NCBI GenBank assembly: GCA_032718475.1
Contig: JAUCBJ010006848.1
Span: forward strand, 1 to 64,000
Direction of reading: 5' to 3'
Length of the DNA: 64,000 bases
Source of the DNA: Nemertoderma westbladi
Taxonomy: Eukaryota > Animalia > Xenacoelomorpha
The notes under the pieces were generated by a model. That model worked only from the letters and a program-made list of their open reading frames with translations, did not search any database and had not been told where the DNA came from. A program made the position numbers and the translations under genes. The stretch's first letter is position 1; every line of letters starts with the position of its first letter. Positions 22,051 through 60,618 of the stretch are shown piece by piece.

Positions 22051-24004
22051 GTTTTCACCAAAACCACAGGTTACAGAAGGGCTGAATCTAACCAAAACAA
22101 TAAACGAATTACAGTAGTATATGTACAGGTTATAAGACAGAAATAAGCGCTATAAAACACTTAATAAAGATAAATTAAAAAAATAAAAAATCTTCATATA
22201 TAAAATTCCAATAAAAAGTCGACCGAAAAGTGAAATCCTGGTATTGTTCACATGGGCGTACTGCTGATCTGATTGCTGCAATAATTTTTGCATCTGTTCG
22301 GTTGCACCCAACCGAACCATACCCTCTCGGATACCATACCCGCCGGCCGCGGTTCCTCTTAAGTAAACCTGAGTAAATGAATTTAAATAATAAGTTAATT
22401 AATAAGTTAAGCCTTCTTATAGTAAGTCTAGCTACGTAGTAATTATATACGGGATTATAATAAATAAATTACCTTTCTTGTAATCTTAAGGCCCGGGTTC
22501 TCACCTTGAATCAATCCTCGCGCCCACGCGCTCAGGCCCTTCGCGATTTCAGGTACGGCCCGCCCCTCCTACTCCACTCTGCTCGCTTCCTCTCCACTCC
22601 GATTTTCACGTTTTTAGAATATTCGGTGACGGTTCTATTTAAACACTATTCTGTGATCAATGGAGATGTTTCTTTATTATATTTTAATATTTGACATTTT
22701 ATTTATCAAATTTACTAAATTAAGCTTTCTAATTTAAGAGGTACACAAACATTTGCTATTTTCATTTAATTAACAGCTTTAATTTCTTTGCATTGCAGAA
22801 ATTATTTTTTGCAGTTTATAACACCAGACATGTCTGAAACGCAGGTTAAATAAGCAATAATAACTAACGCACGTAGGCCTTTGTCTTGATTGAGATATGA
22901 CAACAGACACGTCATTGTAATTTGAAACCCTGGCCTCTCATTGGCTAGTAACTGGCGAAGCTATAATAATTAAATTGATGAATGTGAATGAAAATGAAAT
23001 TAAGATTGGTTCGCTTATGAAGTTATCGGTATTATTAATTGTTAATATTTATAATTGTTAATAACGGAAATATTGTTGTAAATTCGTTAAAGTGGTGCAT
23101 TGATAGTAGGTATTCATACTTGGTATTCATATTACGAGTTATTCATACTAGCACAGAATACCTCGTAAGTTTTAAGTTAATAATTAATTGTAAAGCCGCA
23201 GGTAAAACCGCAGCTGTGCCAATGAGTTAGAGGATGGCCTACTAAATATTAAACTAAATATTATTATATTATTATTGTAATGGGACAAGTCCTACAATTA
23301 AATTGTGTAAGTAAGAAATAACAATAACTATTGTTAGTAAAAAAACTTATCATTCATTCATTGTGTCAACATAATCAAATTGAATTGATAAAATTATGAA
23401 GCAAATTATATATTTATTTATTCTTTAAGCCGCACCAGAGAGGCACAACAATTGTACTATAAAGATTTATAGGAAAATGTTCGGGGAGGAATATATTACG
23501 GGTCAAGGTGTAATTAGTTGCATAAATAAATTGAATATATATTTTATCAATATTGCTAAACATTACAATATTAAATTGATTAATTACGTGCATCCCGCTC
23601 GATAAGTTTAGTTCGCGATCGTCTCCTGAAGGTTTCCTTCTCTTCCGACTTAGAGGCCCGAAACCTGCTTGTGAACCACAACCTGAACCGCTCCAACAAG
23701 AACGTCTCGGATATCTCGAGGAAATTAAGGATCCGACCAAGCCTCCCGGTAGGGGAACGGAAGTTGATGAGCGACCGATCAAAGTTAGTTCACTCACTGA
23801 ACAATGCGGCAAACAACGAGGAGGTAAGTTTCAGTTTGCGATCGGACGGTTCAATTTGGAAGTTTGAACACCACGAAGATGGAAAGTGGAAACGCAACCG
23901 CCAATGGAACCATCAACAAGTTAGCGATGACCATACGAGAAATCACGCGTCGGAATCATCGCGGCCCTCAGTCGGAGTTCTCTCCCAGGCCCAGGGAAAC
24001 AAGT

Positions 24005-25508
24005 AAAGGGAGGGTCTAGCCCAGCACTGGGACCGTTCATTAAGTGTTGTCATTTTAATGCTCGCTCATTAAAAAATAAACTGATAGAGTTACAATATTT
24101 ACTATCTGATCAACAATACGATATAGTTTGCATAACTGAGACGTGGCTTAATAACGATGTACCAAATTCTTTACTAGTGAATGGAAGTAACTACTCGGTA
24201 ATTGCCAGGGCTGACCGTAAACTCCGCGAGGGTGGAGGCGCCGCGATTTTAGCTCGTAACAATCTTAAATGTGTCGAAGTACCTCTCCCTGCTAACTCAA
24301 ACAATACTGAATACTCGTTGGTGGTCATTGATATATTAGGCCATCTCGCTCTCTCCCATCGGTTAGCCTGTGTGTATAGGCCACCTCCCCGTCCGGATGT
24401 TTCAGATCACAGTCAGATCCTCTGGAATGAACTATCAGTTCTTTGTGATGTTGTTTTTCCGTTTACCATTGTAGGTGATTTTAATTTTCCCCAATTCGAT
24501 TGGAAAGAATTTTCTTACCCCGACAATTACCTGTATAATAAATTCGGTGATTTTGTGTTACAAAATAGTTTATACCAGATCCAGTTAGTCCCCACTTGTG
24601 GAGATAATGTTCTGGATCTAGTGTTTACTACTGACCGGAAATTTATCAGCGACGTTCACACTGACGCGCCGTTTTCCACTAGTAACCACGATTGTGTTGT
24701 GTTTGATATCATTGTATGTAGAAATGACAGTGCACCTGCACCTATTACGGGATACTATGACTACTCAAACGGAGACTATACTTCTTTTAATAATTATATT
24801 AGAAATGCTGATCTTATTTCACAGCTTGCTTCTTGTACTACAGTGAATGAATATTACAATACTTTTAGTGCTGTAATTAAATCAGGTGTTGAACAATTTG
24901 TTCCTTTTAAATCGTTTAATGTCGATAAAAGAAAAAGTTATCCTTTATATGTTAAGCGCCTGCAGCGCGCAAAAAAAAAGCTGTGGAAAAGGCGTAATAC
25001 CGAGCATGGGAAACAGGCGTATCAGCGGGTGGCACTACTAGCTTCGAAAGCGGCTCTTCGTGCCATCTGCGCATACGAAACTAAAATTCTCAACTCGGCC
25101 GACCCCAATAAAATATTTAAATATATGAACTCCAAAAGGAAGGATCGTAATGTAATTGGACCTTTGAAACACAACGGCGAAACTGTAGTAGATGACAGTA
25201 CTAAGGCGAAAATTTTCGCCGACGTGCTAGCGGAAAATTTTTCGAATGACAACCACAGTGTCCCAATATTCAACCGTAGGGTTCCTACTGGTACATCTTT
25301 GTCTACTGTAGATTTATCCCCAGTTCGTGTGTTAACAATGTTAACTAAAATGCCAGCCAAAAAGAGTGCGACGCCAGACAACTTGCCTAGCATTTTATTT
25401 GCCAGATTAGCTATTAATATCGCCGCACCACTATCTGTTTTAGTTATCTCTCGAAACATACACACTTCCATCTGCATGGCTCACAGCTACTATTATACCA
25501 ATGTTTAA
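24005..25508 (+). pseudogene. LINE ORF2 part 1: APE-type endonuclease and linker
   Basis: HFNARSLKNK, DIVCITETWL, GGGA, VYRPP, GDFN, LDLVFT and SNH motifs; frameshift near 25440 to the RT frame. Confidence 0.9.
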
Positions 25509-26700
25509 AAAGGGTGATCCTTGTAACCCATACAATTACCGTCCAATATCGTTAACGTGCATATCTTGTAAAGTGATGGAAATGTGTATAAAAAGTGACA
25601 TTATTCTGTATCTACGCAATAATAATATTATTTCGAAGTCCCAACACGGGTTTCTTCATCGTAAATCCACGTGTACCCAGCTATTAGATTGTGTGACTGA
25701 CTGGTTTCGTATTTTAGATAAACGTAGGAATATCGATATTATTTATGTTGACTTTGCCAAAGCTTTCGATTCTGTAGTTAAATCAAAATTATTGTGTAAG
25801 TTAGCTGCTTATGGGATTTCTGGAAATCTACTAGATTGGTTGAATGCTTTCCTCTCAAACAGATCTCAACAAATTATTGTCGGAAATGAGTTTTCACCAT
25901 TAGTTGCTGTGAAATCAGGCACACCCCAAGGAAGTGTTCTGGGACCAGTGCTATTTCTTGTTTTCATTAACGATCTGCCAGACCTGTTAAATCCCATAAC
26001 AGTGAAACTTTTTGCTGATGATGTGAAATTGTATTCTAGTACAACAGAGAGTGAATCCCTCGCCCAAGCACTCAGCAAGCTGGAGGCATGGGCGAGCGAA
26101 TGGCAGCTCTCTATTGCAACCCATAAATGTATTGTTATTTATGTTGGCTCATCCAATGCGAAGCGCGAATACACTCTCAATTCGTCTGTGCTCACCTCTG
26201 ATACACACTGTAAGGACCTGGGCCTAACAATTTCATCCGATCTAAAATTCGATCTTTATTGTAGAGACCAAACAGCAAAAGCTTACAAAGTTATCAATAT
26301 GTTATTCCGGAGCATCGTAACTAGTAACCGTCAAGCTTTAATAATAGCTTATAAAGCCATAGCTCGGCCACTTGTAGAATATTGCACGCCTGTCTGGTCT
26401 CCACATACAAAACGCAGCATAGACATGATTGAGGGTGTTCAACGCTACTTTACTCGTCGTCTGTTTATGCGCTGTAAGATACCCTACTCTAGCTACATGG
26501 ACCGCCTCGAACTGCTTTCCCTACAACCTTTAGAAGTGCGTCGAATGATATTCGACCTAAAAATGGTTTACAAAATTACACACGGTCTTGTTGATCTTGA
26601 CTTTGATAATTATTTCTCTCAAGCTCCCCGAGCTGGTCTTCGTGGCAACAGTAGGAAACTTTACGTACCTAGGTGTCGTTTAGATATCAGCAAACATTCT
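25440..26700 (+). pseudogene. LINE ORF2 part 2: reverse transcriptase
   Basis: NYRPISLT, QHGF, YVDFAKAFDSV, GTPQGSVLGP, FADD, KDLG, EGVQRYFTR; broken at 26700 by the DNA transposon. Confidence 0.92.
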
Positions 26701-27343
26701 GGATCTAGGACACTTCCCCCCCGGACACTTCCCCCCCGGACACTTCCCCCCCGCCCAAGTAGGACACTTCCCCCCCGGACACTTCCCCCCCGGACACTTG
26801 CCCCCCGGACACTTCCCCCCCAGTTAAAGTGTTACAATTAATCTGGGTGCATCAAAGCAATAAACAAAAGTTAAAGATGGTTACAGGACAAGTTGTATCT
26901 AGACAAGTTTTTTCAAAATTATAAAAGAAACATTTTTATAGTCAAATTTTGTTTGTTTTTCTTTTAATTCCTTTAAATCTTTTAATTTCTTTTAATTGGG
27001 GGCTGCCGCCCCCAAACCCCCGCTTCTTTTGTTGGGGGCTACCGCCCCCAAACCCCCGCTTCTTTTCTTGGGGGCTGCCGCCCCCAAACCCCCGCTTCTT
27101 TTCTTGGGGGTTATCGCCCCCAGACCCCGGCATTTCCCTGAGTGCCCGTGGTGAAAGACCACTTTGAAATAATTAATTCATGTTTGTATCATCAGATAAT
27201 AAATTGTGATGAATTATTTCACTATAAGATAGCATTTGTAGTTTAACTTTAACGTAAAAACTTTCGAAAATCCGACGCATTTTGATTAAGTTACTGTAAT
27301 GTAATATGCCTATTCATATTTGTACACATAAAACCCTTAGGTA

Positions 27344-27423
27344 CTCTCGTGGCGTAGTGGTCAGATTGTTAAGGCGTTGGTTACATTACAGATAGGTTAC
27401 GAGTTCGAATCCCGGTCGGGAAA
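27344..27423 (+). ncRNA. tRNA-like Pol III promoter element inside the LTR (copy at 40251-40330)
   Basis: A-box TGGCGTAGTGG, B-box GAGTTCGAATCCC, partial acceptor pairing TCTCG/CGGGA, TTTT run immediately downstream. Confidence 0.6.
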
Positions 27424-27494
27424 TTTGTATTTTGGGGCCATTTATTTTCGTTTGGTGCTAATTGGTGGACCAATGAGAAGCGTACAACGTAGCG

Positions 27495-27720
27495 AATCAT
27501 GAGCCAGGCCAATCATAGGGCATAAATTATCTTATTGCTCAAATGTGAGGCAATGGAAAATTCTGTTAGGATTCCATGTCCCAGATTAGTGTAAGGGCCG
27601 GATTGCGTTGAACGATGAGCTGGGCCAATCATAGGGCACAAAACACTTTATTGCTCAAATGTGAAGCTGTGGAAAATTCTGTTTGGTTTCCATGTGCGAT
27701 ATTTAGTATAAAAGGCCGGT
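27495..27720 (+). promoter_or_regulatory. Putative LTR Pol II promoter: duplicated ~115-bp enhancer-like units with CCAAT boxes, then TATA
   Basis: Two direct repeats each containing GCCAATCATAGGGCA; GTATAAAAGG at ~27707. Confidence 0.55.
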
Positions 27721-30430
27721 TTGCCTTCGGTTATCACTTCTTAACCCCCTCTATTCGCTATATCTTTAGTAAATTGTTGTTAGTTTATTTGGTTTCTTGT
27801 TGAAACTTTATTTGATAAATCCTTTGTAAAACTGTAAATATACTGCAAATTCCTGAACATGTTTTCTTTTGGTCCAACTTTGGGACAGCCAAACATCGGG
27901 AAGATGACAGCCTAGACCGTTAGGCCGTAAGCAACGCAGGGAAAAGATGTCCACAACACGCTAGCGCCCACATTGGATTGACCGCGCACCCCCTTGCCCT
28001 TCGAAATACTCCACTTGCCATGCAGCGCCCGCTTTGTGAGAAAGGTAAGACTTTGTTCGACGCCCTTGCCCGCCGTAAGACCTATAGATCAGGGTAAGCG
28101 TGACGCCGTCCTGGACGCCGCAAATTTAGGATCAAATAATTATATTCAGACAGAAACACCCCCCCCTTGTCAGTCCTACGAACCCCTGGGTTAACCTGTA
28201 CTTCCTACAGGTGCGAACTATTGCCATTCGTCAGTACGCGAGTACATAGGTACGGACAGCATATGTTCCATAATTTAGTGATTCGTAGTATTGACTGTTT
28301 GGTACCGGTTCGCTTTGTAGAACGTACATTAGTACCCCCCCCCCCCCCCTGTCTGGAGTTAGCTATTTGATCAGGCAAGGAGTATTTCTGCTACCGGCAC
28401 ACTGCTTGGCCTAGGGAGGTTTATTAATATCCTACCGCGCCTTGCCACGTACTGATAGGTATTGCTGCTAACTACCGCGGCAACAAAGTTCTAGAATTAA
28501 ATTAGTATACCAGATCAGCTAACGTACGGTAGCGATTAACCCCTATTTCTTATCTTACAACCAGAATCTGGTATTAGTGCCGATCACGGGTGTAGTTACT
28601 AACACCGTGGCTGCCCATTGGGTTGTGGATAGGAAGGAGAGAGCTTTGACGTCATTTGTGAGTATAAAGTTCTACAAAACGCGACTAGTTTATTTTAGTA
28701 GCTAGCGCACGGTATCATTTCGGTCAGAAAATCACTAAAACCTAGTAAAAGGAAATACATGAAATTGTTTTATTTGTAACACACCCACACACACACGCCC
28801 TAAAACATATTGCCCTTAGAGTTCTACTAGCTATAGCGCACTATACATTACTTTAGGTGGAAATTATCTGTATTTGTAAAATTAGGATCTGATTTAGTTG
28901 CGGCAATAAGGAGTATTTCACTTTCGTTATTAACTGTTGTTTTCTGTCCAGCAGTATTGTTACATTTAGGCCTGACCCTTTAGACTGATTTTGTACAGGG
29001 GGATCAGTTATCATTACATTTAGGCACAACCTTTTAGGCTGATTTAGACAGGGGTAATCAGCATTGTTACACTAGGTCTGTTAACCACCTAGTTCGTATA
29101 TAAACCATATAAATCACACCGCGGCAAGTTACTGTATTTAGGACTGTCAGTGATAGTTAGGCTTCGCTGCGCGGGGATTGTTTTCCCGTGAGTTTGGTCT
29201 GTTACTGTAACTGTACATCTGCCTCACCGGTTAGAGGACAGGTATCCTTTTGTCTAGTACGTAGGCATTAGACCCGCTCACGTACATAGAATAGATACTA
29301 GGCTCTGTTCCTCGCCAGTAGTCGTTTTTGTATTGTATCTGTTTGTTTAGATATCCTGGACTGGGATTTGTTGTCAGATACTGTACGAGCCCGTATACAT
29401 TACTAGAGTCTCATAGTAAGATACATCGTTACTAGGATCTGGTAAGCGGTATACTACTGGACCCTTACAGTAGGAAGTATTTATTAAATATCTTAACTGA
29501 AAGTGCGTGCACATTTGAAGTGAGATATAGATAAATATTGTTAGCTATTGAAAGTAGGAGATATTTAAAATTTAAGGTTAGTAAATTTAGTAATTTAGAG
29601 CGTCCCCTGCTTCAGTAGGCTTTTAGGGTAGCTAGTACTTTCGTATTTAATATTTGACTAGCTAACAGTTAGTTTGTAGCAATTTGTTTTACGCCGTGTG
29701 TGTGCGGTGTTACTTTCGGTACTTGAAAAGGTACATAGGGTTTAAAGACCAATTTGTATCGGTACCTAGGAAGATTTTTCGTAAGCGTAGAAGTAAAACT
29801 CTCACCTTCGACCCTTTCAGGACTCAAGGACTCATTTCTGGACCGCTTCGAGGATTAGACCGCTTTTCGCAAAGTTTGGGAGACAATAAATTCGTCCGCG
29901 CCGCCGAAAAACGGAAAGACCCACGTCCGGTTTGTATTTGGGAATTTGTACGACTGGAAGATCAAAGGAACGTAAGTTTTACGACTCGCGTTGTTCAAAC
30001 TTAAGAAAGCACAGTAGTACTCAAAATTTGTGGGTTTCACTGTCTATTAGTAGTGTTGTTGGTACTTATTTTCCCATTAGACATTGCTGTTTTGCCTATT
30101 ATTTGTACTTGTTGATCTATATTTTGGTAACGTATACCGTTATCTCATTTATTCGTACAAATTTAGCCGGTAGGCTAGATTACTACTTATTTTATTATAT
30201 ACCTTGTTAGTTTATTTGTACCGGTTAGGGTATATATATGATATATATATATATCAAGGTAAGTTTGACATTTGTACATTTCGACATTTTGACATTTCGA
30301 CATTCTGACTTGTTGATTTATTTGTACCGGTTAGGGTATATATATACTATATATACCAAGGTAAGTTTGACACTTCAACATTCAGACACTTTGACATTTT
30401 ATTACCCGTACTTGACGTATATAATAAGAC

Positions 30431-33400
30431 ATGAGTGACACACCCCATTCGACGAGATACCCACCTACCGACTATGACTCGTGCGACCCGGACAGATCGA
30501 CAGTAGACGAACCGAGAAGGAGAACCCGAGATTCCACCGATGTCACACCGCTTGCGTCGCCGGTACCCCGAACGGAAATTCCGGAAGCCGCAACGCGTGG
30601 CGACGGCAGAATCGAAGATTTCCTTACCGTCCCGCAGACTAGATCGCGGGAACCGGACATGGTAAGTTCGACTGGAAGCCAGGAGAACGTTATTAGGAGT
30701 ATAGGAGGACACATGGCCCAGATTACTCGAAACTTCGGAGAAGGTTTTCGCCTTTTACGCGAGTTAACCGCCCCGATGTCGAGATACGAGTTCTACGCCT
30801 TACAGGTAAGGATAGAAAGTAGGGTACATGCCTCCATAGATAAACTTAAAGGTTTACACGAACTTGCAGAGTTGCGTGGCGACAACTTTACTCAGGTAAA
30901 GATAATCGATAAGTTGGTAAGTGCGAGGGAAAGCCTCATTCAGTTTAAGTCGGTTGTAGGATCAACTCAGCAAGAACAACTCGACCAACTGTTAGGTGAA
31001 TCAGTTTCGGAAGCGTTGTTACAACCCGAAGAGGAAGAAGAACTATACTGCCTGGACGGGAGGTTAGGGACGCTCACCAATTTTCTTCGTAGATGCGGAG
31101 TACCGATCGAAGAACCGGAAGTTGTACCGAGAGAGACGACGGAAGTTCTATCTACGGAAGGCTCGCGAGCCTACCAAATTCCACCACTGGATAGATCATT
31201 CGTTAGTGTACGGAGCGACGTTGGCGACGTTAGTAGAACAGCGTCTGTAATTATTCGACAACAACAGGAGGTCGCACGCCGACAACAAGTTGCCGAGGAA
31301 GAAGCGCAACTACAGATGGCACAGATCGCCATCGAAGGAGAAAAACAGCGCAGAGAGGATGTAGCGAAACTTGCGAAACTTCAAGCACAGGCTGAGTTCG
31401 AAGCATCAGAGATGCGGAGACTGGAGGAGGACTTAGCGCGAGAAGCGGCCGCGGCGGCAGCAGTTGACGAGCTAGCACGACAGGCAGCGGCGGCAGCCGA
31501 CGAGTTAGCACGAGTTGCGGCGGTAAACGCAGCTGAGTTAGCACGGAAGAAAGCAGCATCCGACGCTCGTGCCAAGTTGGAGGCGCGACAAATAAACGCT
31601 CGTTTAGCGATACATGAAGCTGAGTTAGCGGCACAACAACAGGAAGCAGATCGACGCGAAAGAGAGATGCAGCTCCAGTTCGAACTGAATCGTAGATCGC
31701 GCGAGGCAGCGAACGCGCAAGCGAACCTCGAACTCGACGCGAGAGATAGATCTATAAGGTCTCGAACTGGACACGACTTGTCTGCCCTGGATCGCATGGA
31801 GACTCGATATCGCGGAATCCAGAAGCGAATCAAGGAAGGAAGTGTGGGAGCGATAGATCGAGGAGAGGAGTTCGTCGAGGATTACTGTAAACGTTTTCCC
31901 CAAGTTATTCCTATGCTCAAACCCACGACTCAGATAAAACCGGTCTTTGTTACGAAACCTAAGGAAATAATGCCTGTGCGCCCGACGCAAGGTAGCAGGT
32001 TTGTTGTGATGGAAATACCGCAACCTAGGGCGACTTCATCGCCAATTTTAGCAGGTAACATAACTAGTCCACGTACAGTAAGTCGTAGTTTACTTGTGGA
32101 GAGAGACGAACCTGCGTTTATGACAGTGAAACAGGTGAGTAAACCATTGCAAGTTAAACCGGTGACGTGCTGCGCGAACCCAGTCATTTATAAACCTACA
32201 GTAGAACTTAACTCAGATGTTTTTACTAGACCTCTCACCCAATGTTTATCGAGACCTACGACTTCGTGGAAGGCTTGCGAGCCTGCCGAACAACGAAGGA
32301 CGATGGATGTGGGTAATACCCACAGGATCGAACCGAGTTCAACGAGACCTACGACTTCGTGGAAGGCTTGCGAGCCTACCGAACAACGGAGAGCCGTAGA
32401 TCCCAGACCACAACGAACTCGACCAAGAATAATACGCCGGACGCGAACCCACCAACCACCTTATCCGGACGACAGCGATTCATCCAGTGACTCGGAGTCG
32501 ACGGAACGGGAAATATTCCGTACTGGAGCGGCAGCGGCAGCGCATTACAAACGGGAGGAACGATCGACGAACCCCTATATCGATAATCCTCCACGAGAAA
32601 CACCCCAACAGAAACCCACGTTGCAACCAGCGGAAGCGATCAGCACCAACAGACTCGCCGAAATAATGCGACCTGTAACGGACCAACTAGCTCAACTCGA
32701 AGAGCGACTCGAAGCGCAACCGTCGGATCGATCACGAACCAGCGTGCAGTTAGAACAACCTGAACAACATCGACCACCAAGGAGAGAACAGGAGACTAGA
32801 CAGACTCCGACCCCTCGAGAAGATCCCATTAATAATTCCTACCGACGAACAACGCACGGAAGGGAGCGACTGGACGACGCCACCGAACAGGGACGCGGAC
32901 AGTTGGACTTAGTTAGCGAGATTGCGAAATTCGCGGCTAGACACGGATTACCGGCACAGCAACCGCCGAAGTTCTCTGGCAACGCGAAACACTGGCGCAC
33001 ACTGGTAGACTACGTAGAGTCCCAGATCGCTAAGTGTGCTTTCACCTCGATGGAGAAGTTTAATTACTTGCTCCAAGTTCTGTCTGGTGAGCTGAAACGA
33101 TTAGCGGAAACCTTTATTGGAGTTCCCGATGCCTTTGAGTTGGCGTACGACCGTTTATATTCGATTTACGGAGGTAACGTCGCCATGGCTAAATCCATTA
33201 ATGAAGACCTCTGCAGAGGAGGCAACATTTCGAAACCGATCCACCTTTTACGACTCGCGGACGAAATCAAGAACGCTATAGGGACTTTACGATCTATTGG
33301 ACAACTCGAGCATGCTAACGCACCGACGGTTCTCATTCGAATAATCGGTCGACTTCACCATCGACTACGACGAGAATGGCGACGCATCGAGTACCAGCGT

Positions 33401-33907
33401 GAAGAGGCCGGAGGGTTATTAAAACTCACCGATGTCTATCAACTGATTTCACGGGAGGCCGTGATCGAGACTCGATCGAACTATACCGATCACCATATCG
33501 CGGTGGAAGGGATAGCTGTTTCTGCGCCGACTCGGACAAAACCGTTTCCGATGAACGCGAAAGCCGTTACTTACGCCACCCCTACTGAGACTTCTAAAGT
33601 TCTGAAGCCTATCGGCACCACGCAGCCACGACAACAGTTGCCGGCGGACTTTGTGGGATGCTCATACTGCGAGCGGAACGGCAGAAACTATAGCGGACAT
33701 AAACTACGTGGATGTCGCGCTTTTAAAGAGTTAGGGATCGAGGAGAGGAGACTCCAAATCCGATCTCTAGATTCCTGTTGGAGATGTATGAAGCCAGGAC
33801 ACGTCCGGAAGGATTGCCCGAGCGACGATATATGTTCTCTGTGTAGACGTAACCATGACGCGTTGCTTCACACAACCAGTCATACTCCGACCACACGCTT
33901 TCGATGA
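30431..33907 (+). CDS. gag: BEL/Pao Gag (1158 aa)
   Basis: Long coiled-coil region, PPKFSGNAKHW capsid-region motif, three C-terminal Cys/His knuckles (CSYC..H..C, CWRC..GH..C, CSLC..H..LLH). Confidence 0.9.
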   Translation: MSDTPHSTRYPPTDYDSCDPDRSTVDEPRRRTRDSTDVTPLASPVPRTEIPEAATRGDGRIEDFLTVPQTRSREPDMVSSTGSQENVIRSIGGHMAQITRNFGEGFRLLRELTAPMSRYEFYALQVRIESRVHASIDKLKGLHELAELRGDNFTQVKIIDKLVSARESLIQFKSVVGSTQQEQLDQLLGESVSEALLQPEEEEELYCLDGRLGTLTNFLRRCGVPIEEPEVVPRETTEVLSTEGSRAYQIPPLDRSFVSVRSDVGDVSRTASVIIRQQQEVARRQQVAEEEAQLQMAQIAIEGEKQRREDVAKLAKLQAQAEFEASEMRRLEEDLAREAAAAAAVDELARQAAAAADELARVAAVNAAELARKKAASDARAKLEARQINARLAIHEAELAAQQQEADRREREMQLQFELNRRSREAANAQANLELDARDRSIRSRTGHDLSALDRMETRYRGIQKRIKEGSVGAIDRGEEFVEDYCKRFPQVIPMLKPTTQIKPVFVTKPKEIMPVRPTQGSRFVVMEIPQPRATSSPILAGNITSPRTVSRSLLVERDEPAFMTVKQVSKPLQVKPVTCCANPVIYKPTVELNSDVFTRPLTQCLSRPTTSWKACEPAEQRRTMDVGNTHRIEPSSTRPTTSWKACEPTEQRRAVDPRPQRTRPRIIRRTRTHQPPYPDDSDSSSDSESTEREIFRTGAAAAAHYKREERSTNPYIDNPPRETPQQKPTLQPAEAISTNRLAEIMRPVTDQLAQLEERLEAQPSDRSRTSVQLEQPEQHRPPRREQETRQTPTPREDPINNSYRRTTHGRERLDDATEQGRGQLDLVSEIAKFAARHGLPAQQPPKFSGNAKHWRTLVDYVESQIAKCAFTSMEKFNYLLQVLSGELKRLAETFIGVPDAFELAYDRLYSIYGGNVAMAKSINEDLCRGGNISKPIHLLRLADEIKNAIGTLRSIGQLEHANAPTVLIRIIGRLHHRLRREWRRIEYQREEAGGLLKLTDVYQLISREAVIETRSNYTDHHIAVEGIAVSAPTRTKPFPMNAKAVTYATPTETSKVLKPIGTTQPRQQLPADFVGCSYCERNGRNYSGHKLRGCRAFKELGIEERRLQIRSLDSCWRCMKPGHVRKDCPSDDICSLCRRNHDALLHTTSHTPTTRFR

Positions 33908-36900
33908 GAGCATCCAGATAAAGCGGCTAGATGCGACGCGCTTTACAAGGAGCGTGCGCCGCGCGAGATCCGTACCTTTTATACCGACTGTATGGATCAG
34001 TCAGGATCATCGGACGAGGACGAGGAGGAAGACGACACTTTCTACGTGCATGCAGGTGAGGAACAGCCATCGATAACGCTCCTCACACAGAACCAACTGA
34101 AAGGATTTAGTGTGATTCCTATAAAGATTACCGGAACCCAAGGGAGCAAGCGTATATACGCCATCTTAGACTCTGCGTCATCGCATAGCTATGTCGATGA
34201 GCAAGTAGCCGATGTAGTTACGGACATGAGTCAAGGTAAGACTGCTCAGTATACTGTAAGCAGCATGCATGGTAAGAGAGCGATCCCTGTGACGAGAGTA
34301 AAACTAACTTTAGACACTCTTCTTTCCAAAGCGGAACACAGCAAGGAGGAGCGCTCATTACTTCCGGTAAGAAATTTGACCTTTGCAGCTATGAAGGACT
34401 TTAGTAACTTGCTCGGCCCTGTGCCAGAGCAATCACCGGAAGATCGTAAGTATTTCCGACACCTTGGAATACCGGAATGTCCTGTTAATTATCGTTCCAT
34501 TGCGATGTTAATTGGGACAGACCAGTTTAACTTACATCAGGTATGGGAGACACGCCCATCTGTTATTACAGCGGGCAACCCCTACGCATGTAGAACTCCC
34601 ATAGGTTGGTATACTAGAGCACCAATACGTTCACTAGAGGTAAGTGACCAGGAGGACGACGTTTTGAGTACGTGTAGTTTATTGACTAACACGATAGATA
34701 ATTCTCCTTCACACTCCCGTGGTCCAATTGTACGGACGGCACTACGACAGACTCGCGTCACTAACGCAGGCGCCACCGATACTGACGTAACCGATCTGGA
34801 CACGACCATATGGACCTCTGACTTACAACTACTTGCAGTAGACCAGGTTGTATTGACTACTGAAGACCAAAGGGTTGTTGCCGTGGATGACTCGATGAAC
34901 GAGGATTTTGGAAGGCTTGCGAGCCTACCGAAAAATCCGAAGGTCATTGACCCCACCCACCAGGCTTCGACACCGGTCGTTGATCTTGGAAGGCTTGCGA
35001 GCCTACCGACAGATCAAAAGGTTGTCAAACCGCCGCACGACAATTCGACGCCGACTAGTGACACCGGAAGGCTTGCGAGCCTACCAGACACATTGACACT
35101 AGCCACCGCAGCGGACGAAGACGTGGACGAGGACCATGGCGCAGTGCAAGCAGCGGTTGACCGACTGCTGCCTGAACGGACCATACAATGGTTGGAACAG
35201 GACTCAGCAGAACCCGGTAGTTACGAGACCGCTATGTCAGAACAGGAAAAACGGTCATTAAATATTATGAGAGATACCATTCACCAGACCGCGAATGGCC
35301 ACTATGAGGTTGGTATGTTGTGGCGCAATGGACAACCTAAGCTCGTTAACAATTACCCGCTTGCTTTGAGGCGACTCAAATCAATAAGGCAGCGATTGTT
35401 GCGAGACGAGACGGCCCATATGCAATACAATGCACAACTTCAGACGTATCTCCAAAAGGGATACGCCATTAGGATGTTAAATCCCGAGGTAACCTCAGAC
35501 CAGACATATTACCTGCCACATCATTTTGTTCGACACCCGGACAAACCTGGCAAGGTGCGTGTAGTCAATGACTGCGCTGCGCTTTACCAAGGGATGTCTA
35601 TGAATAGCGAACTGATGGACGGGCCGAATATGAATAATTACCTCATGGGAGTCCTAATGCGTTTTAGACAACGCAAAGTGGCTTTCACCTGTGACGTAGA
35701 GGCCATGTTTCACCAGGTTAAGGCTTTGGAGCGGGACAGGGACAGTTTAAGGTTTCTTTGGTATCCGGACGGAAACTTACAACTTCCGCCAGAAACTTAC
35801 CAAATGCAGGTAAGAGTATTCGGAGCCAGGGACAGCCCCAACTGCACCATGTACGCCTTAAAGCAGACAGCATTGGACAGACGAGACCAATTTGACCCAG
35901 AAGTAGTTCGGACCGTGGAACGAGACTTCTACGTGGATGACAGCCTCAAGAGTTGTGACACCTTGGAGGGCGCTACAACCGTAGCACACCAACTCCAGGA
36001 TTGTCTCGCTGAGGGCGGATTTCACCTGACGAAGTTCGCTTCCAACGAACCCGAACTGGTGAACTCATTTGACCCGATGGATCGCAGTGGAGGTGACTTG
36101 GACTTAGACCTAGAACCTCTGCAGACGACCAAAGTATTAGGACTTAGTTGGGACCCTAACACCGACAATTTTAGGGTACGTGTAAGGTCCAACGACCAGA
36201 CTAGACCTCTCACTAAGAGGACTTGCTTATCGACCATGAGTCGATTGTATGACCCATTGTGTTTCATTAGTCCAGTGATCCTACATGCTAGGATCATACT
36301 CCGCAGCATTTGTCAAGCCAGACTGGAATGGGACGATCCCATCCCAGAAAAGTTAGCTGAGCGATGGAGGGACTGGGAAGCCCAACTGACGTTCCTACAA
36401 GACTATACCATACCGAGGGTATACTTTCCTTTGCAAACCACCTTTCCTGCCGATTTAGAGCTTCACAGCTTTAGTGACGCTAGCAAGAATGGATTGGGGG
36501 TTACTTTATACCTTAGACGACAAGTGACATTGGACAGCTACGATGTATCTCTCGTTACTTCAAGGGCTAGAACGATGCCATTGAAGTATATGACTGTACC
36601 TCGTGGGGAGCTGCAAGCCGGGACGATATCCACCGATATTGTCAGTCTAGTTCAACGTGAGCTGGAGGCTAACTTAAAGGTCACATATTGGACGGATGCG
36701 ACGTTGGTACTTTGGTACATAAACAACGAAGCATTTGAGTTCAAGACTTTCGTAGCCAACAGACGGGCTGAAATATTAGACCGGTCGCTCAAACAAGATT
36801 GGCATCACTGTCCAGGGAAGCTGAACCCAGCTGACATCGCGTCACGGGGGATGCAACCGCTTGACTTTTGTAAACCGGACAATAAATCCCTTTGGTTTAG

Positions 36901-37441
36901 AGGACCCGATTTCCTACAGCGACCATCAGACGAATGGCCACCGTTATTCGACGCGACAACCAACACCATACCAGAGGGTGCCGAGATAAAACTCGACAAG
37001 GTTGTCAAGTCTAAAGCGAAAGCCAACGCCAAGGTCAAGAGGAAAAAAGGACGGACGAAATCTGATGACCTGGACGCCAGACCTGACATTACGCCAGACG
37101 TCTCACCAGACATTCGACCAGACGCTTGTACGAATCCTTCGCCGGATGTTCCGCGGGAGATTTCACCAGACGTTTCGCCGGATTGTTCACCAGATTACTC
37201 GCCAGACTATTCACCAGAAGAGACACCAGATTGTTCTCCGGATTGTTCGCCAGATTGTTTGATGGAACTCTCGACAGAATGTCTACCGGACGTCTCACCA
37301 GACTTTCCACCAGACATCTCGACAGACTGTCCACCAGACTTTAGACCAGACTTTGAACCCGACTTTCTGACGGAAGTTACGCTAGACAGACTTTGGGACC
37401 GACGACAAGACATTTCGCGAAACGCGGAAGGGTACAGGTAA
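33908..37441 (+). CDS. pol: BEL/Pao Pol: aspartic protease, RT, RNase H (same frame as gag, open from the gag stop)
   Basis: AILDSAS (protease), YYLPHH, DVEAMFHQV, FGARDSP, FYVDD (RT), HSFSDAS, PRGEL, WTDA, NPADIASRG (RNase H region). Confidence 0.92.
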   Translation, partial: EHPDKAARCDALYKERAPREIRTFYTDCMDQSGSSDEDEEEDDTFYVHAGEEQPSITLLTQNQLKGFSVIPIKITGTQGSKRIYAILDSASSHSYVDEQVADVVTDMSQGKTAQYTVSSMHGKRAIPVTRVKLTLDTLLSKAEHSKEERSLLPVRNLTFAAMKDFSNLLGPVPEQSPEDRKYFRHLGIPECPVNYRSIAMLIGTDQFNLHQVWETRPSVITAGNPYACRTPIGWYTRAPIRSLEVSDQEDDVLSTCSLLTNTIDNSPSHSRGPIVRTALRQTRVTNAGATDTDVTDLDTTIWTSDLQLLAVDQVVLTTEDQRVVAVDDSMNEDFGRLASLPKNPKVIDPTHQASTPVVDLGRLASLPTDQKVVKPPHDNSTPTSDTGRLASLPDTLTLATAADEDVDEDHGAVQAAVDRLLPERTIQWLEQDSAEPGSYETAMSEQEKRSLNIMRDTIHQTANGHYEVGMLWRNGQPKLVNNYPLALRRLKSIRQRLLRDETAHMQYNAQLQTYLQKGYAIRMLNPEVTSDQTYYLPHHFVRHPDKPGKVRVVNDCAALYQGMSMNSELMDGPNMNNYLMGVLMRFRQRKVAFTCDVEAMFHQVKALERDRDSLRFLWYPDGNLQLPPETYQMQVRVFGARDSPNCTMYALKQTALDRRDQFDPEVVRTVERDFYVDDSLKSCDTLEGATTVAHQLQDCLAEGGFHLTKFASNEPELVNSFDPMDRSGGDLDLDLEPLQTTKVLGLSWDPNTDNFRVRVRSNDQTRPLTKRTCLSTMSRLYDPLCFISPVILHARIILRSICQARLEWDDPIPEKLAERWRDWEAQLTFLQDYTIPRVYFPLQTTFPADLELHSFSDASKNGLGVTLYLRRQVTLDSYDVSLVTSRARTMPLKYMTVPRGELQAGTISTDIVSLVQRELEANLKVTYWTDATLVLWYINNEAFEFKTFVANRRAEILDRSLKQDWHHCPGKLNPADIASRGMQPLDFCKPDNKSLWFRGPDFLQRPSDEWPPLFDATTNTIPEGAEIKLDKVVKSKAKANAKVKRKKGRTKSDDLDARPDITPDVSPDIRPDACTNPSPDVPREISPDVSPDCSPDYSPDYSPEETPDCSPDCSPDCLMELSTECLPDVSPDFPPDISTDCPPDFRPDFEPDFLTEVTLDRLWDRRQDISRNAEGYR

Positions 37442-38316
37442 AACGTTGGGGATTGATCTTCACTTGCATGGCCAGCAGAGCTGTCCATATAGAGCGAGTG
37501 ACAGACTTGACCACCAATGCCTTTATCCTAGCCTTACGGCGATTTATCGCTAGACGTGGATTGGTCAAATCCATATACTGCGACCAAGGGACAAACTTTG
37601 TGGGTGCACGGAACGAAATAACCAGAGCTTTGAGAAAGTTGGACCAAAACCAGATTTCCGAGGAACTACGTCCTCACCGTATTGTTTGGTATTTCAATAC
37701 TCCAGACAGTCCATGGAGAGGCGGCATTTGGGAAAGGCTGATTGGCTCAATAAAGACAGCTATGGCTAAAGTAGTACCGACGCAACACATCTTGACAGAC
37801 GACCAACTGACGACGTTACTAATAGAAATCGAAGCAATCTTAAATACTAGACCGATCGCTTTGATCCCAGACAATAACGACGTACAGTTTGCCTTGACAC
37901 CAGCGCACCTGCTTATGCAGGCACCGACGACATTGTTGCCCATTTCGGTACCCGTTGATAGTGACGGATACGGCAACAAGGCTTGGAAAATCACTCAATT
38001 GCTTGCAAATAAATTCTGGGAAATATGGCAGAAATATTATTTGCCCTCTATTTCAACCAGAACCTCTTGGTATCTAAATACCCGATGTTTAAGACGTGGT
38101 GACCATGTTTTATTGGCTGAAGCTAATCTGAAAAGACGGTTTTGGCTGACTGGAGTCATTTTGACCACGCACCCTACATCTGGTGTAGTGAGGACAGTTA
38201 CTGTAAGGACTATCGACGGACGTACCGTAGATAGGCCTGTACAACGTCTCGTACTCCTTGAGGAGACTAGAAACGAGACGGGAGACTACAAATCTCCACC
38301 CAATATTAGTAAATAG
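37393..38316 (+). CDS. BEL/Pao integrase core and C-terminus, frameshifted relative to pol
   Basis: KRWGLIFTCMASRAVHIE, RRFIARRG, CDQGTNF, PWRGGIWERLI, LNTRP, LTPAHLL, RPVQRL. Confidence 0.9.
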   Translation: MGPTTRHFAKRGRVQVKRWGLIFTCMASRAVHIERVTDLTTNAFILALRRFIARRGLVKSIYCDQGTNFVGARNEITRALRKLDQNQISEELRPHRIVWYFNTPDSPWRGGIWERLIGSIKTAMAKVVPTQHILTDDQLTTLLIEIEAILNTRPIALIPDNNDVQFALTPAHLLMQAPTTLLPISVPVDSDGYGNKAWKITQLLANKFWEIWQKYYLPSISTRTSWYLNTRCLRRGDHVLLAEANLKRRFWLTGVILTTHPTSGVVRTVTVRTIDGRTVDRPVQRLVLLEETRNETGDYKSPPNISK

Positions 38317-39103
38317 ATGTGGGACCTTAATTGGCCGCCACATAGACCTACTGTATTTTAGTTATTTGTATTTGTATTACTGTACGTGCATTTGTAATCC
38401 TCTTCACTGTAGATAGAGACAGCGGTGGAATTCCATTGTCTTTATACGTGAACATGGAGGGTAGTACCCTTATGTATCACATAGGAGCGGGATTGTGTGT
38501 ACAGTAGGAATGGAATTCCACTTGGAACCCACAAGTGAGACATTTTTCAATATTTATTAGACAAATCCATTTATTTGGATTTAAATTTAAGAAAAACAAT
38601 TCTCCAGTGAAAGCAAATTCTAGAATACAGCTAGATAAAAATTAAAATTGGGGAGGACAAGAGCGGATGGAAGGCTTGCGAGCCTACCGATAAATTTTTT
38701 TTGGAAAAAGAAAATCGGCCTTGTTCTACGTAGTCGTGTCTACTATTATTTAGACCGAATTAATTCTCGACTGCATTATTTTCTTTTGGGAAGTAGTTGG
38801 GAAATTAAAAGGTGAGTATTTTAGACTCACGGCTAGTTTACCCGGAATTCGTTTTTTATCGGCACATTTTTTGGATTAGGAGCCAGTGCGAAATCACGTG
38901 AACCCGAAGTCATTAGGCAAATGGGTAGGGGTTTAGAGCAAAGTTGAGCCAAAAGCCGACAAAATAAGTCTCCTCACATCTAACCTCTGTTTGTGCTTCC
39001 TCTAGTAGAAACACTATTATCAGGGATCCACGCAGGAATAGGAGCACCAGGCGCCGTTCAACTGATATGGGGCCAAAACTTTAACCTGTTTGGAGTGGAG
39101 AGT

Positions 39104-39370
39104 ATGGCTAGGAGTACAGCCAAGCTCGCTAAGTCCAAGGCGGATCCAAACATCACGCGACAGCGATTGGACGCTCATAACAAAAGAGCGGATGAGTTAC
39201 GCGCGGAGTTCAAAGCGTTGTACCCCTACGATGTGTTATGCGACGCCAGCGACGTTTGCGAGAACCCCGAGCCGATATTAGCGCGTTGCCCAAACCACCA
39301 AAGTCTGCGTTACCAAGAAGGCGGTCGTTTCATTTCCTGGTATTCTAGAACTGCAGGCAACTCGACGTAG
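39104..39370 (+). CDS. Possible small accessory ORF (88 aa from the ATG) in the 3' region of the BEL element
   Basis: GC-richer open frame (38993-39370) in an AT-rich 1.8-kb region after integrase; ATG in AGTATGG context; no recognised motif. Confidence 0.35.
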   Translation: MARSTAKLAKSKADPNITRQRLDAHNKRADELRAEFKALYPYDVLCDASDVCENPEPILARCPNHQSLRYQEGGRFISWYSRTAGNST

Positions 39371-40113
39371 GAACCACCGACAGCTCGACACCGAAGTCCG
39401 AGTCCAGTTCGATCCCACCACCCAGTCGTAATAGAGGACGTGGACGAGCCGTTCGACCAAGGATTAGGAAAGATTCGATTTCGATTTATATTTGAGCGAT
39501 TATATTTGGACTTATTTGAGTATTTATATTGGAGTTGGGTTTGGAGGAGCGAGATATGGAAAGGAAGGCTTGCGAGCCTACTGTTAGCAATTAGTGCTCA
39601 GGAGAAGATATCCAGACCAGCAGGACGAACTATTTAGATCGTCAGGAGGACACGTTAAGACTTATTTGGAAGTTATTAGCGTATTGTGTTTATTTTATAT
39701 TTGAACTGATTTAATTTGGTGGAAGTTATTAGCGCATTATGTTCATTTTATATTTGGACTGATTTAATTTGGTGAATTTATTATGTATGTTTACAATATA
39801 TAAAGATTTATCGAAAAAGAGTTACAATTATTTGTTCGATTTGTTTTGATTTATTTGTTCTGATTTGTTTAATTTGCTTACCTTGATAACCGAAAGCCTT
39901 TTTTGTATTTTAGGCACTAAAGTTAATTAGTAAATTTGTATTTGTATGTACGATCGATTGTATTTACGCCGTATCTGCAATATTAAGTATGCAATAATTA
40001 GATAGTGATTATATTTTATATTTTAGGTCCTACCAGTAGATTTAGAAGTAGTTTGTAAATATTTTATATTTCGATTGGTGAAAACAGTCTTACTTACTGT
40101 TTTCATGGAGCGG

Positions 40114-42389
40114 TGATGAATTATTTCACTATAAGATAGCATTTGTAGTTTAACTTTAGCGTAAAAACTTTCGAAAATCCGACGCATTTTGATTAAGTTA
40201 CAGTAATGTAATATGCCTATTCATATTTGTACACATAAAACCCTTAGGTACTCTCGTGGCGTAGTGGTCAGATGGTTAAGGCGTTGGTTACATTACAGAT
40301 AGGTTACAAGTTCGAATCCCGGTCGGGAAATTTGTATTTTGGGGCCATTTATTTTCGTTTGGTGCTAATTGGTGGACCAATGAGAAGCGTACAACGTAGC
40401 GAATGATGAGCCAGGCCAATCATAGGGCATAAATTATCTTATTGCTCAAATGTGAGGCAATGGAAAATTCTGTTAGGATTCCATGTCCCAGATTAGTGTA
40501 AGGGCCGGATTGCGTTGAACGATGAGCTGGGCCAATCATAGGGCACAAAACACTTTATTGCTCAAATGTGAAGCTGTGGAAAATTCTGTTTGGTTTCCAT
40601 GTGCGATATTTAGTATAAAAGGCCGGTTTGCCTTCGGTTATCACTTCTTAACCCCCTCTATTCGCTATATCTTTAGTAAATTGTTGTTAGTTTATTTGGT
40701 TTCTTGTTGAAACTTTATTTGATAAATCCTTTGTAAAACTGTAAATATACTGCAAATTCCTGAACATGTTTTCTTTTGGTCCAACTTTGGGACAGCCAAA
40801 CATCGGGAAGATGACAGCCTAGACCGTTAGGCCGTAAGCAACGCAGGGAAAAGATGTCCACAACACGCTAGCGCCCACATTGGATTGACCGCGCACCCCC
40901 TTGCCCTTCGAAATACTCCACTTGCCATGCAGCGCCCGCTTTGTGAGAAAGGTAAGACTTTGTTCGACGCCCTTGCCCGCCGTAAGACCTATAGATCAGG
41001 GTAAGCGTGACGCCGTCCTGGACGCCGCAAATTTAGGATCAAATAATTATATTCAGACAGAAACACCCCCCCCCCCCCTTGTCAGTCCTACGAACCCCTG
41101 GGTTAACCTGTACTTCCTACAGGTGCGAACTATTGCCATTCGTCAGTACGCGAGTACATAGGTACGGACAGCATATGTTCCATAATTTAGTGATTCGTAG
41201 TATTGACTCATGGTACCGGTTCGCTTTGTAGAACGTACATTAGTACCCCCCCCCCCCCCCCCCCCTGTCTGGAGTTAGCTATTTGATCAGGCAAGGAGTA
41301 TTTCTGCTACCGGCACACTGCTTGGCCTAGGGAGGTTTATTAATATCCTACCGCGCCTTGCCACGTACTGATAGGTATTGCTGCTAACTACCGCGGCAAC
41401 AAAGTTCTAGAATTAAATTAGTATACCAGATCAGCTAACGTACGGTAGCGATTAACCCCTATTTCTTATCTTACAACCAGAATCTGGTATTAGTGCCGAT
41501 CACGGGTGTAGTTACTAACACCGTGGTTGCCCATTGGGTTGTGGATAGGAAGGAGAGAGCTTTGACGTCATTTGTGAGTATAAAGTTCTACAAAACGCGA
41601 CTAGTTTATTTTAGTAGCTAGCGCACGGTATCATTTCGGTCAGAAAATCACTAAAACCTAGTAAAAGGAAATACATGAAATTGTTTTATTTGTAACACAC
41701 CCACACACACACGCCCTAAAACATATTGCCCTTAGAGTTCTACTAGCTATAGCGCACTATACATTACTTTAGGTGGAAATTATCTGTATTTGTAAAATTA
41801 GGATCTGATTTAGTTGCGGCAATAAGGAGTATTTCACTTTCGTTATTAACTGTTGTTTTCTGTCCAGCAGTATTGTTACATTTAGGCCTGACCCTTTAGA
41901 CTGATTTCGTACAGGGGGATCAGTTATCGTTACATTTAGGCACGACCTTTTAGGCTGATTTAGACAGGGGTAATCAGCATTGTTACACTAGGTCTGTTAA
42001 CCACCTAGTTCGTATATAAACCATATAAATCACACCGCGGCAAGTTACTATATTTAGGACTGTCAGTGATAGTTAGGATTCGCTGCGCGGGGATTGTTTT
42101 CCCGTGAGTTTGGTCTGTTACTGTAACTGTACATCTGCCTCACCGGTTAGAGGACAGGTATCCTTTTGTCTAGTACGTAGGCATTAGACCCGCTCACGTA
42201 CATAGAATATATACTAGGCTCTGTTCCTCGCCAGTAGTCGTTTGTGTATTGTATCTGTTTGTTTAGATATCCTGGACTGGGATTTGTTGTCAGATACTGT
42301 ACGAGCCCGTATACATTACTAGAGTCTCATAGTAAGATACATCGTTACTAGGATCTGGTTGGTAAGCGGTATACTACTGGACCCTTACA
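40114..42389 (+). repeat. 3' LTR (2276 bp)
   Basis: Direct repeat of 27207-29469 followed by the TSD AATTG. Confidence 0.95.
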
Positions 42390-43118
42390 AATTGACTAAG
42401 CCTAAAGTAGGAGCTGTATTGAATGTTAACCAATTTAATATATAAATTACTACAATATTATATAATTCAACAAAATCCTATTAAAAATATTGCAAGTAAC
42501 CAGGAAATTTAATATGTAGTGTGTATAATAATTATCTATATACTATGTATAGTAGTAATATGTATATCAATATGTAATGCTGAACACAGAATACAGGTCG
42601 ACGCATGTCGATTTTACCCTGGAGAGGTATAATTTTGATTGCAACAATAATATTCATCCCCATCTGCTACAATTTGAAGAAGACTATTACATAATAATAC
42701 CTATAATTAAAACAATTAATTATTATAATTCTATAGTTAATAAAAACAGTATATCATTCCGGGGATGGAATTTATAGGTCATCTAATATAATTAATTGTT
42801 TAAAGATTAGCAAACAATACGATGTAATTGCATTGATAAAACCCATAAATAAAACTTGGATATAAAATTTAAAATCGGGATGCAAAATATCACTTTCTGA
42901 GCTACGATTGGAAAATTGGATACAACTTATCTGGATACAAGCGGTCCGTTTACCTTACAAAATGAAAAATACGAATGTGCGAAGTTAAGAACAGTCGGGG
43001 GGGAAGTGTCCGCGGGGGGGAAGTGTCTGGGGGGGAAGTGTCCGGGGGGGAAGTGTCCTACTTGAGCGGGGGGGAACTGTCCGGGGGGGAAGTGTCCGGG
43101 GGGAAGTGTCCGAACACC

Positions 43119-52760: not shown

Positions 52761-53777
52761 ATTCAAGATTCAAGATCAACCAATAAAGTCAGCTGCCCCA
52801 TCTGCGACAAAGAGATGCGGAGCGATCATCTAAAATCTCATATTAAAACTCATTTCGTGCAATATAGATGCGACTGCTGCCCGACTTGGTCCTCGGCAAA
52901 GAAGACACTGGTTGGCCATCTTATTTCGTGTCCTCAGGGGGGAACAGGATTTAGTTACGTAAACGAGCCAGCCGATTGCCGCTGCGGGGATTCGCTCACC
53001 CTGTCATCCTTTACTGAGCATGAATGCTATACTCGACTTTTTTCGTGGAAACGCAAAACTCCGACTACCTCCCACTCATCCCCCATCAGCTCTACTCCAG
53101 AACAAGTCGGCAGCGGCGGCTCCAATAATGAACCTTCAACTTCGCGAGATTCTATTTCCCCAAACAATCCCTTTCAACCTCCCTCCAACGGAAGCGCACA
53201 CGGACGACTGTTTACCTATAACAACGACCTCGCAGAAACAAGACTCGATGCTGAATTAACATTAAACGAAAATTTTCCACACATTCAAGAACACGTTAGT
53301 AGCCATCTACAAAGTGCTTTGGGAACTTTTTTAAGAGTCTGGCTTACAATCAATATCGTAATGGAGCGTGAAACCAGCGAGGGATTTCAAATTGAATCGT
53401 TCTGTTTTAAATCTAGCGGTAACAATAATCAAATTCTGAATAATAGTGACTTTAATAACTGGTTTTCTAGCGCCGTCAATCGTATCGATCAACTGTTAAG
53501 CGTGTTTCTCTGTCTCGGCTCGGGTTGGCGCATAATAGCCATCGAGCGAATAACTATTGAGATTGCGCGATCCCAACGCAACCCCTATTTAAAGGGTCAA
53601 GGCTTCAATAATTCTAAATTATTATTAAATAAAAAATGTAGCGTAAGCGTAGACTGCCCGCTGGGGGAATGCTTTAAATACGCAGTATTAGCCGCCGCGA
53701 ATTATAAGAAAATTGATAGAAAACAAAATAATATCAAAATAATTTCAACATATACACGGGATACGAGTAGGGATTGA
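52761..53777 (+). pseudogene. N-terminal fragment of a Polinton-type protein-primed DNA polymerase B (zinc fingers, terminal-protein region, start of an OTU-like domain)
   Basis: CPICDKEMRSDHLKSHIKTH C2H2 finger; F..LGSGWRIIAIERITIEI...PYLKG...LLNKKCSVSV....ECFKYAVLAA matches the GSGW...KK...CF.W(A/S)VLA pattern of Polinton/adintovirus pPolB N-termini; truncated near 53745. Confidence 0.75.
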
Positions 53778-60532: not shown

Positions 60533-60618
60533 CGTGATTGTGTACCGGTAACTCGTTTAGGAAATAAAAATAAATAAATACTTTTACGAAAATAATTAAA
60601 ACTTTTCAGGAAAACAAA

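Follow-up and report, generated by a model that had tools for sequence, protein, structure and literature searches.

Within a 64-kb window of the Nemertoderma westbladi genome (contig JAUCBJ010006848.1, positions 1 to 64,000), a BEL/Pao long terminal repeat (LTR) retrotransposon of 15.2 kb, with LTRs of ~2.3 kb, is host to eight copies of a 20-nt near-palindrome that is predicted to fold as a hairpin. All coordinates are positions in this window, on the + strand. The copies are spread over 8.4 kb, six within open reading frames (ORFs) and two 3′ of the last ORF:

31156..31175, + strand: hairpin copy 1 (site 1), in gag, phase 2, loop CGCG, perfect 14-nt palindromic core
32268..32287, + strand: hairpin copy 2 (site 2), in gag, phase 1, G at position 18
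32361..32380, + strand: hairpin copy 3 (site 2), in gag, phase 1, within a 93-nt duplication shared with copy 2, ~55 nt of which are alike
34910..34929, + strand: hairpin copy 4 (site 3), in pol, phase 0
34988..35007, + strand: hairpin copy 5 (site 3), in pol, phase 0
35066..35085, + strand: hairpin copy 6 (site 3), in pol, phase 0
38669..38688, + strand: hairpin copy 7 (site 4), in the non-coding 3′ region
39563..39582, + strand: hairpin copy 8 (site 5), in the non-coding 3′ region, T at position 20

Five of the copies are identical and each of the other three carries one change, at position 9 (T/C), 18 (A/G) or 20 (C/T); any two copies share at least 18 of 20 letters. An earlier note, made from the sequence alone, had described eight matches to one pattern in the same orientation, and the pattern was recovered without mismatch at all eight + strand positions; seven matches on the minus strand (two or three mismatches) are the same sites in reverse reading. 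Shuffled sequence contained a mean of 0.01 pattern matches, and 12-mers of the motif occur seven times in the internal region of the element, compared with a maximum of two for any 12-mer in 100 Markov shuffles. Apart from these copies, the 64-kb window, including the LTRs, contains nothing that matches the commonest copy with six or fewer mismatches, in line with the note's report that the motif is absent from the LTRs and from the rest of the window. The note had also placed the copies in three codon phases, with two in the 3′ non-coding region; both statements hold (phases 2, 1 and 1 in gag; 0, 0 and 0 in pol; two copies 3′ of the last ORF), and the peptides that it listed were found as EGSRAY, WKACEP (twice) and GRLASLP (three times).

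The three copies in pol are carried by a tandem repeat:

34904..35090, + strand: 78-nt tandem, 2.4 copies with 75% matches, carrying hairpin copies 4-6, in the expanded protease-reverse transcriptase linker

Because the pol copies share this tandem and copies 2 and 3 share the 93-nt duplication, we count five independent sites rather than seven. The note had recognized a larger duplication for the 32268/32361 pair only, which is correct for that pair but not for the remainder, given the tandem in pol. It had further reasoned that a signal would be refuted if all copies lay in larger duplications with equally similar flanks; five of the eight do lie in duplications, but their flanks are less conserved than the motif. 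Flanks of 40 nt at the five sites are about as alike as expected by chance, sharing mostly 5-17 letters per side. Comparison of 78-nt units 1 and 2 gave 0 differences in the 20 hairpin positions and 23 in the remaining 58 (Fisher p=0.0004), indicating that the motif is constrained or homogenized at the nucleotide level. All three hairpins of the tandem are identical; unit 3 is homologous only as far as its hairpin, and the three-way comparison was not counted. Constraint at the protein level is ruled out by the differing codon phases, and the three phases, the non-coding copies and the contrast between units 1 and 2 together substantiate the proposal that constraint acts on nucleic acid rather than on protein.

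Public contigs aligned to the element in large numbers (14,202 and 6,698 in two runs) and carry many variants; their summed depth does not equal copy number. In contigs from two runs, the 108-110 nt upstream of copy 8 are replaced by 28-30 other letters, and contigs with this other 5′ flank rejoin the element 2-4 nt before the motif. Run X3 contains two loose ends, one contig each, that lie on the motif and whose flanks are ~80% like those of the gag pair (by eye). This suggests that diverged copies in the same organism keep the motif, as judged from flank positions and not from the motif letters. In run X5 no contig covers the pol cluster, which is no proof of absence.

Uniform copies in divergent surroundings could have arisen neutrally, if reverse transcriptase slips or switches template at the hairpin, copies it into tolerant linkers, and short conversion tracts then keep the copies uniform. 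The location of five of the eight copies in local duplications fits this scenario, as does the finding that relatives have no counterpart of the regions holding the six coding copies (the linker, and gag residues 244, 614 and 645). The family is also young, with many copies that could act as conversion donors, and a population test of variation in the contigs is non-significant over its full stretch. However, identity falls within a few letters of both motif ends at independent sites, which would demand very precise tracts, and all copies have one orientation and show no flanking target duplications. When template switching acts on a quasi-palindrome, it tends to make the palindrome perfect, yet both asymmetries of the motif persist, and the stem is kept by every variant. 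We therefore consider neutral copying unlikely.

The predicted structure agrees with the hairpin drawn in the earlier note. Stem pairs 2 and 4-8 are invariant in all eight copies; seven copies have U-G and one has C-G at pair 9/12, a single copy has G-U at pair 1/20, and position 3/18 is A-A in seven and A-G in one, where the change at 18 faces an unpaired A. The 14-nt core is a palindrome that includes the loop. Every variant preserves both the hairpin and the duplex, with no stem-breaking change among the copies, and the only hairpin variant seen in the population, at the last base (35007), retains G-U pairing while changing the codon. On the sense strand the wobbles are G-U, which would read A-C on the antisense strand, and the five sites are all in one orientation; the wobble bias is a weak sign of a role at the RNA level, on the sense strand.

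Invariance of this kind might instead reflect a double-stranded DNA site, i.e. an inverted repeat bound on the integrated copy or cDNA by a dimeric host factor or an element protein, and serving as an enhancer, insulator or anti-silencing mark. Exact conservation without covariation is the imprint expected of a DNA-binding protein; as an inverted repeat the motif spans 20 bp and has two asymmetries, and its predicted DNA folds have similar energy on either strand (-4.7 and -4.4). Against this, a near-symmetric site would be expected in both orientations whereas the five sites all point one way, the variants are skewed towards sense-strand G-U, and no copy is found in the LTR, where promoter motifs lie, or in the 49 kb of the window outside the element. 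A DNA site thus appears improbable. On comparison by eye, a p53-type site was rejected, as its half-sites would overlap. A +1 frameshift site like the Ty3 heptamer (PMC11381356) was likewise rejected: six of seven letters fit, but the phases vary between sites. Neither Rfam nor ARAGORN gave a call at the motif; the two Rfam matches in 27000-42500 were below threshold and both lay to the left of the LTR, clear of the hairpins.

Pairing between copies is predicted to be favourable. Cofolding gave -30.7 kcal/mol for a duplex of two copies vs -15.2 kcal/mol for two hairpins. With the pairing span limited to 60 nt, the core pair has a probability of 0.87-1.0 in all eight copies, and with a span of 200 nt the core hairpin pair falls to 0.0 in copies 2, 3, 5 and 6, with copies 2-3 and 5-6 pairing mutually. 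The copies are near-invariant against drifting flanks (at least 18/20 identity across five sites with unlike flanks) and are placed in linkers and in the untranslated region. We favour the reading that the eight copies constitute a multiplied, dispersed RNA dimerization/packaging signal on the genomic RNA, to which we assign a probability of roughly 40%. Kissing, refolding by a chaperone and the link to packaging are inferred by analogy with human immunodeficiency virus type 1 (HIV-1), Moloney murine leukaemia virus (MoMuLV), Ty1 and Ty3. According to this model, each copy would fold as a small hairpin whose loop kisses another copy, and the Gag nucleocapsid would refold the kissing pair into an 18-bp duplex, thereby linking a pair of genomes at five positions in an RNA of ~14 kb (a size inferred from the element). 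Alternatively, copies within one RNA may pair, compacting that RNA. Slippage of reverse transcriptase is the likely origin of new copies in tolerant regions, where selection would have retained them. We propose that the copies are uniform rather than covarying because a cross-pairing sequence must match all of its copies. The multi-site cis-acting signal suggested in the earlier note is thus retained as the best reading, with dimerization/packaging fitting the anatomy best, but the fold energy is not specific to one strand.

The same constraint would also be produced by stand-alone hairpins, each docking either the zinc knuckles of Gag or an RNA-binding protein of the host through the YGCG loop and the A-A internal loop, in the manner of packaging-signal-mediated assembly, such that no pairing between copies is needed. 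Both loop alleles match the YNMG tetraloop pattern, which we count in favour of docking. The core pair predicted in every copy at the 60-nt limit points the same way, and the A-A mismatch is kept in seven of eight copies although replacing it by a true pair would add stability. RNA viruses have been described as carrying multiple dispersed packaging signals (PMC6281560); however, the known signals described there vary around a shared motif, whereas the stem here is invariant, and a loop-reading protein would permit compensatory stem changes, none of which occurs among the copies. Protein docking is in our view possible, though on the unlikely side, and explanations other than the four considered here are, even taken together, very unlikely.

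A number of observations weigh against the dimerization/packaging reading. There are no compensatory changes among the eight copies, and hence no covariation to prove base-pairing, and the pair flanking the stem is U-G in five of eight, C-A in two and A-G in one. The isolated hairpin is predicted to fold with -7.6 kcal/mol on either strand, local folding z-scores are modest (-0.2 to -3.1, five copies), and a favourable duplex comes with any self-complementary loop, such that it is not independent of the shape. A single orientation at five sites has a chance of 1 in 16. At third codon positions alone, units 1 and 2 differ at 0 of 6 positions in the hairpin vs 9 of 20 outside it (p=0.06). Among the contigs, the stretch 34860-35130 has 14 variable sites, located at 1 of 60 hairpin positions vs 13 of 211 others (one-sided p=0.14); p fell to 0.043 only when the span was trimmed post hoc. 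The first copy lies 726 nt into gag, with none in the LTR or the 5′ leader, and the dimer sites known so far are located close to the 5′ end. Finally, in a comparison set of 15 distant BEL loci from contigs in prokaryote genome bins, with 32-42% reverse transcriptase (RT) identity, of which six are without an LTR-like pair and several are partial, none has the motif within three mismatches, and none has a dispersed hairpin family in a census of perfect hairpins sharing one loop at least three times. Conservation of the motif, which the earlier note had raised for sister families, was seen indirectly, in diverged contigs of the same organism, and was not seen in the 15 distant BEL elements.

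The hairpin peptides were present in none of 269 fetched protein relatives. Motif scans returned two single matches in viral contigs and 43 in metagenome contigs; none of these 45 loci matches the element proteins or the window DNA, and they are therefore treated as chance. A scan with a 16-nt core returned 32 stretches. Scans for related loci found nothing in viral contigs and, with a single query, nothing in genome contigs. As far as tested, the motif appears to be family-specific. A repeat at locus L052, the only other case flagged by the hairpin census, was rejected as an analogue: it is clustered, upstream of that element's ORFs. BEL/Pao loci L046-L060 lie in contigs filed as bacterial or archaeal genome bins, several with LTRs and intact ORFs, and are probably of eukaryote origin, through host contamination of the bins.

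Known systems provide the analogies for the model. The HIV-1 dimerization initiation site (DIS) is described as proceeding from a kissing loop to an extended duplex with nucleocapsid (NC) (PMC7357161), and the RNA dimers of Ty1 and Ty3 are held together by palindromes, aided by Gag/NC (PMC6844567, PMC11381356). The motif resembles the HIV-1 DIS/SL1 and the MoMuLV PAL1/PAL2 and GACG loops in being a short hairpin with a self-complementary, GC-rich loop, an internal loop and a possible extended duplex (PMC7357161, PMC1865058). Retroviral 5′ leaders, as described there, hold between one and four distinct dimer motifs, whereas here one motif occurs eight times with none in the leader. Like Ty1 PAL1/PAL2 and Ty3 DS/PAL6, it is a palindrome of an LTR retrotransposon, and Ty3 PAL6 also lies in a hairpin apex; those palindromes are 6-7 nt long, single-copy and at the 5′ end (PMC6844567, PMC11381356), unlike the 14-nt core within a 20-nt motif that is dispersed here through a BEL/Pao element. 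Finally, packaging signals of RNA viruses and hepatitis B virus are also multiple stem-loops across coding and non-coding RNA but vary around a short recognition motif (PMC6281560), whereas the present copies are near-identical over 20 nt and self-complementary.

Dimer sites formed by palindromes are known, as are dispersed packaging signals, and the earlier note's description of a novel system is in this respect overstated; what is new here is the combination of a palindromic dimer-type site with dispersal, and the host family. BEL/Pao replication has been characterized as poorly understood (PMC8742986). The note knew of no such motif in BEL/Pao elements, and full-text literature searches, with poor coverage of subscription papers and supplements unopened, agreed in finding none. 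Literature searches also found no dimer or packaging signal for BEL/Pao; the International Committee on Taxonomy of Viruses (ICTV) profile of the family (PMC8742986) mentions neither, and a term search of the main BEL/Pao survey (PMC3118150) returned no 'hairpin' or 'palindrom'. An eight-fold 20-nt motif offers a defined and cheap target for studies of RNA selection and pairing in BEL/Pao elements. Should it prove to be a dimer site, it would break the pattern of few, 5′-located sites and suggest how an oversized retrotransposon RNA holds together. It also provides a test case separating RNA-RNA pairing, with invariant stems, from protein docking, with covarying stems.

The remaining features of the host element are as follows.

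27202..27206, + strand: target-site duplication, left copy, 5 bp, identical five letters at both LTR ends
27207..29469, + strand: 5′ LTR, 2263 bp, without a hairpin copy
30431..33907, + strand: gag ORF (~1158 aa) ending in TGA; long extension at the N terminus, DUF1759, and Cys/His knuckles at the C terminus
33908..37441, + strand: pol ORF, encoding protease, a long linker, RT and RNase H; same frame as gag, following the stop
37070..37367, + strand: 12-nt tandem with a Pro/Asp-rich translation, in place of the relatives' integrase N-terminal part
37357..38316, + strand: integrase core and DUF5641 tail, in a frame different from pol
40114..42389, + strand: 3′ LTR, 2276 bp, without a hairpin copy
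42390..42394, + strand: target-site duplication, right copy, 5 bp, same letters as the left copy

The LTR pair has the TG...CA ends and the target-site duplication. The two LTRs differ by 15 substitutions and 15 gap columns in 2277 columns, and these few substitutions together with the 5-bp duplication indicate a young insertion. Three Pfam domains scored above cut-off (DUF1759, Peptidase_A17 and DUF5641), the Pao-type order Gag-PR-RT-RH-IN (protease, PR; RNase H, RH; integrase, IN) is present, and identity to the relative P0007 is 46% over 579 aa. Named RT/RH relatives are chiefly from marine invertebrates and fish, with at most 46% identity (272 matches), which points to an animal host. Relatives of Gag (22-35% identity) match its C-terminal part only, the best stretches of the 150 listed all starting at residue 658 or later. 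The protease-RT linker is ~200 aa long here vs 38 in P0007, and no protein relative of this region was found among shorter proteins. The element shares its domain order, Pao-type Pfam domains and paired LTRs with Belpaoviridae/BEL-Pao (PMC8742986). The ICTV profile gives 4.2-10 kb with LTRs of 0.2-1.2 kb, compared with 15.2 kb and 2.3 kb here, and the element further departs from it in that no tRNA-type primer site is evident immediately behind the LTR, gag and pol are separated by a stop, and the N-terminal part of integrase is missing (PMC8742986).

The gag TGA (33905-33907), with pol in frame after it, may be a lesion or a programmed readthrough site; Tj1, too, has a stop between gag and pol (PMC4600332). 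Variation at this stop is absent among the 40 of 942 substitution rows listed from the public contigs (alongside 12 of 80 indel rows). Of these 40 substitutions, 34 fall in ORFs and 15 are synonymous; 14 of the 27 in gag are synonymous, which gives a hint that gag is under selection.

Integrase is incomplete, with no counterpart of P0007 residues 1508-1760 and a core out of the pol frame. Contig depth over the 12-nt tandem is similar to that of neighbouring sequence, and so the tandem is probably not private to this copy. As the tandem replaces the N-terminal part of integrase, the core is out of frame and the tandem depth is normal, the family may depend on a helper integrase. A more speculative extension, which we consider doubtful, is that a very successful BEL/Pao family with an incomplete integrase multiplied one palindromic dimer site along its entire RNA, and through its ORFs in all frames, such that two genomes zip in register at five points; its oversized RNA would then obtain particles either by outcompeting a helper element or by hitch-hiking with one.

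No tRNA-type primer site beginning with TGG was found within 30 nt after the 5′ LTR (the tRNA set was not searched), and the purine run before the 3′ LTR is short. The first 10 nt after the 5′ LTR (29470-29479) are exactly complementary to an intra-LTR stretch at 28199-28208 (also 41111-41120), which sits in a small predicted hairpin, and this complementarity is a candidate for self-priming like that of Tf1/Tj1 (PMC4600332). Against self-priming, the complement lies ~490 nt downstream of a TATA-like motif at 27707, and no likely RNA start lies there. Immediately upstream of this TATA-like motif, the LTR contains a 116-nt duplication (27494-27703) with a CCAAT-like box per unit. By eye, both LTRs also contain a tRNA-like stretch with A-box- and B-box-like motifs (~27341-27425 and 40248-40332); ARAGORN called no tRNA at these stretches.

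Elsewhere in the window, long stop-free frames without a Pfam match lie at 48863-50176 (437 aa), 52761-53777 (338 aa) and 58823-60556 (577 aa). Immediately upstream of the element, at 23931-26841, are ORFs in two frames for an endonuclease and a reverse transcriptase of the long interspersed nuclear element (LINE) type. Inverted arrays of a 15-nt C-rich unit flank the element at 26708-26821 and 42996-43112; they are 96% complementary over 91 nt and are possibly the terminal repeats of another element that received this insertion.

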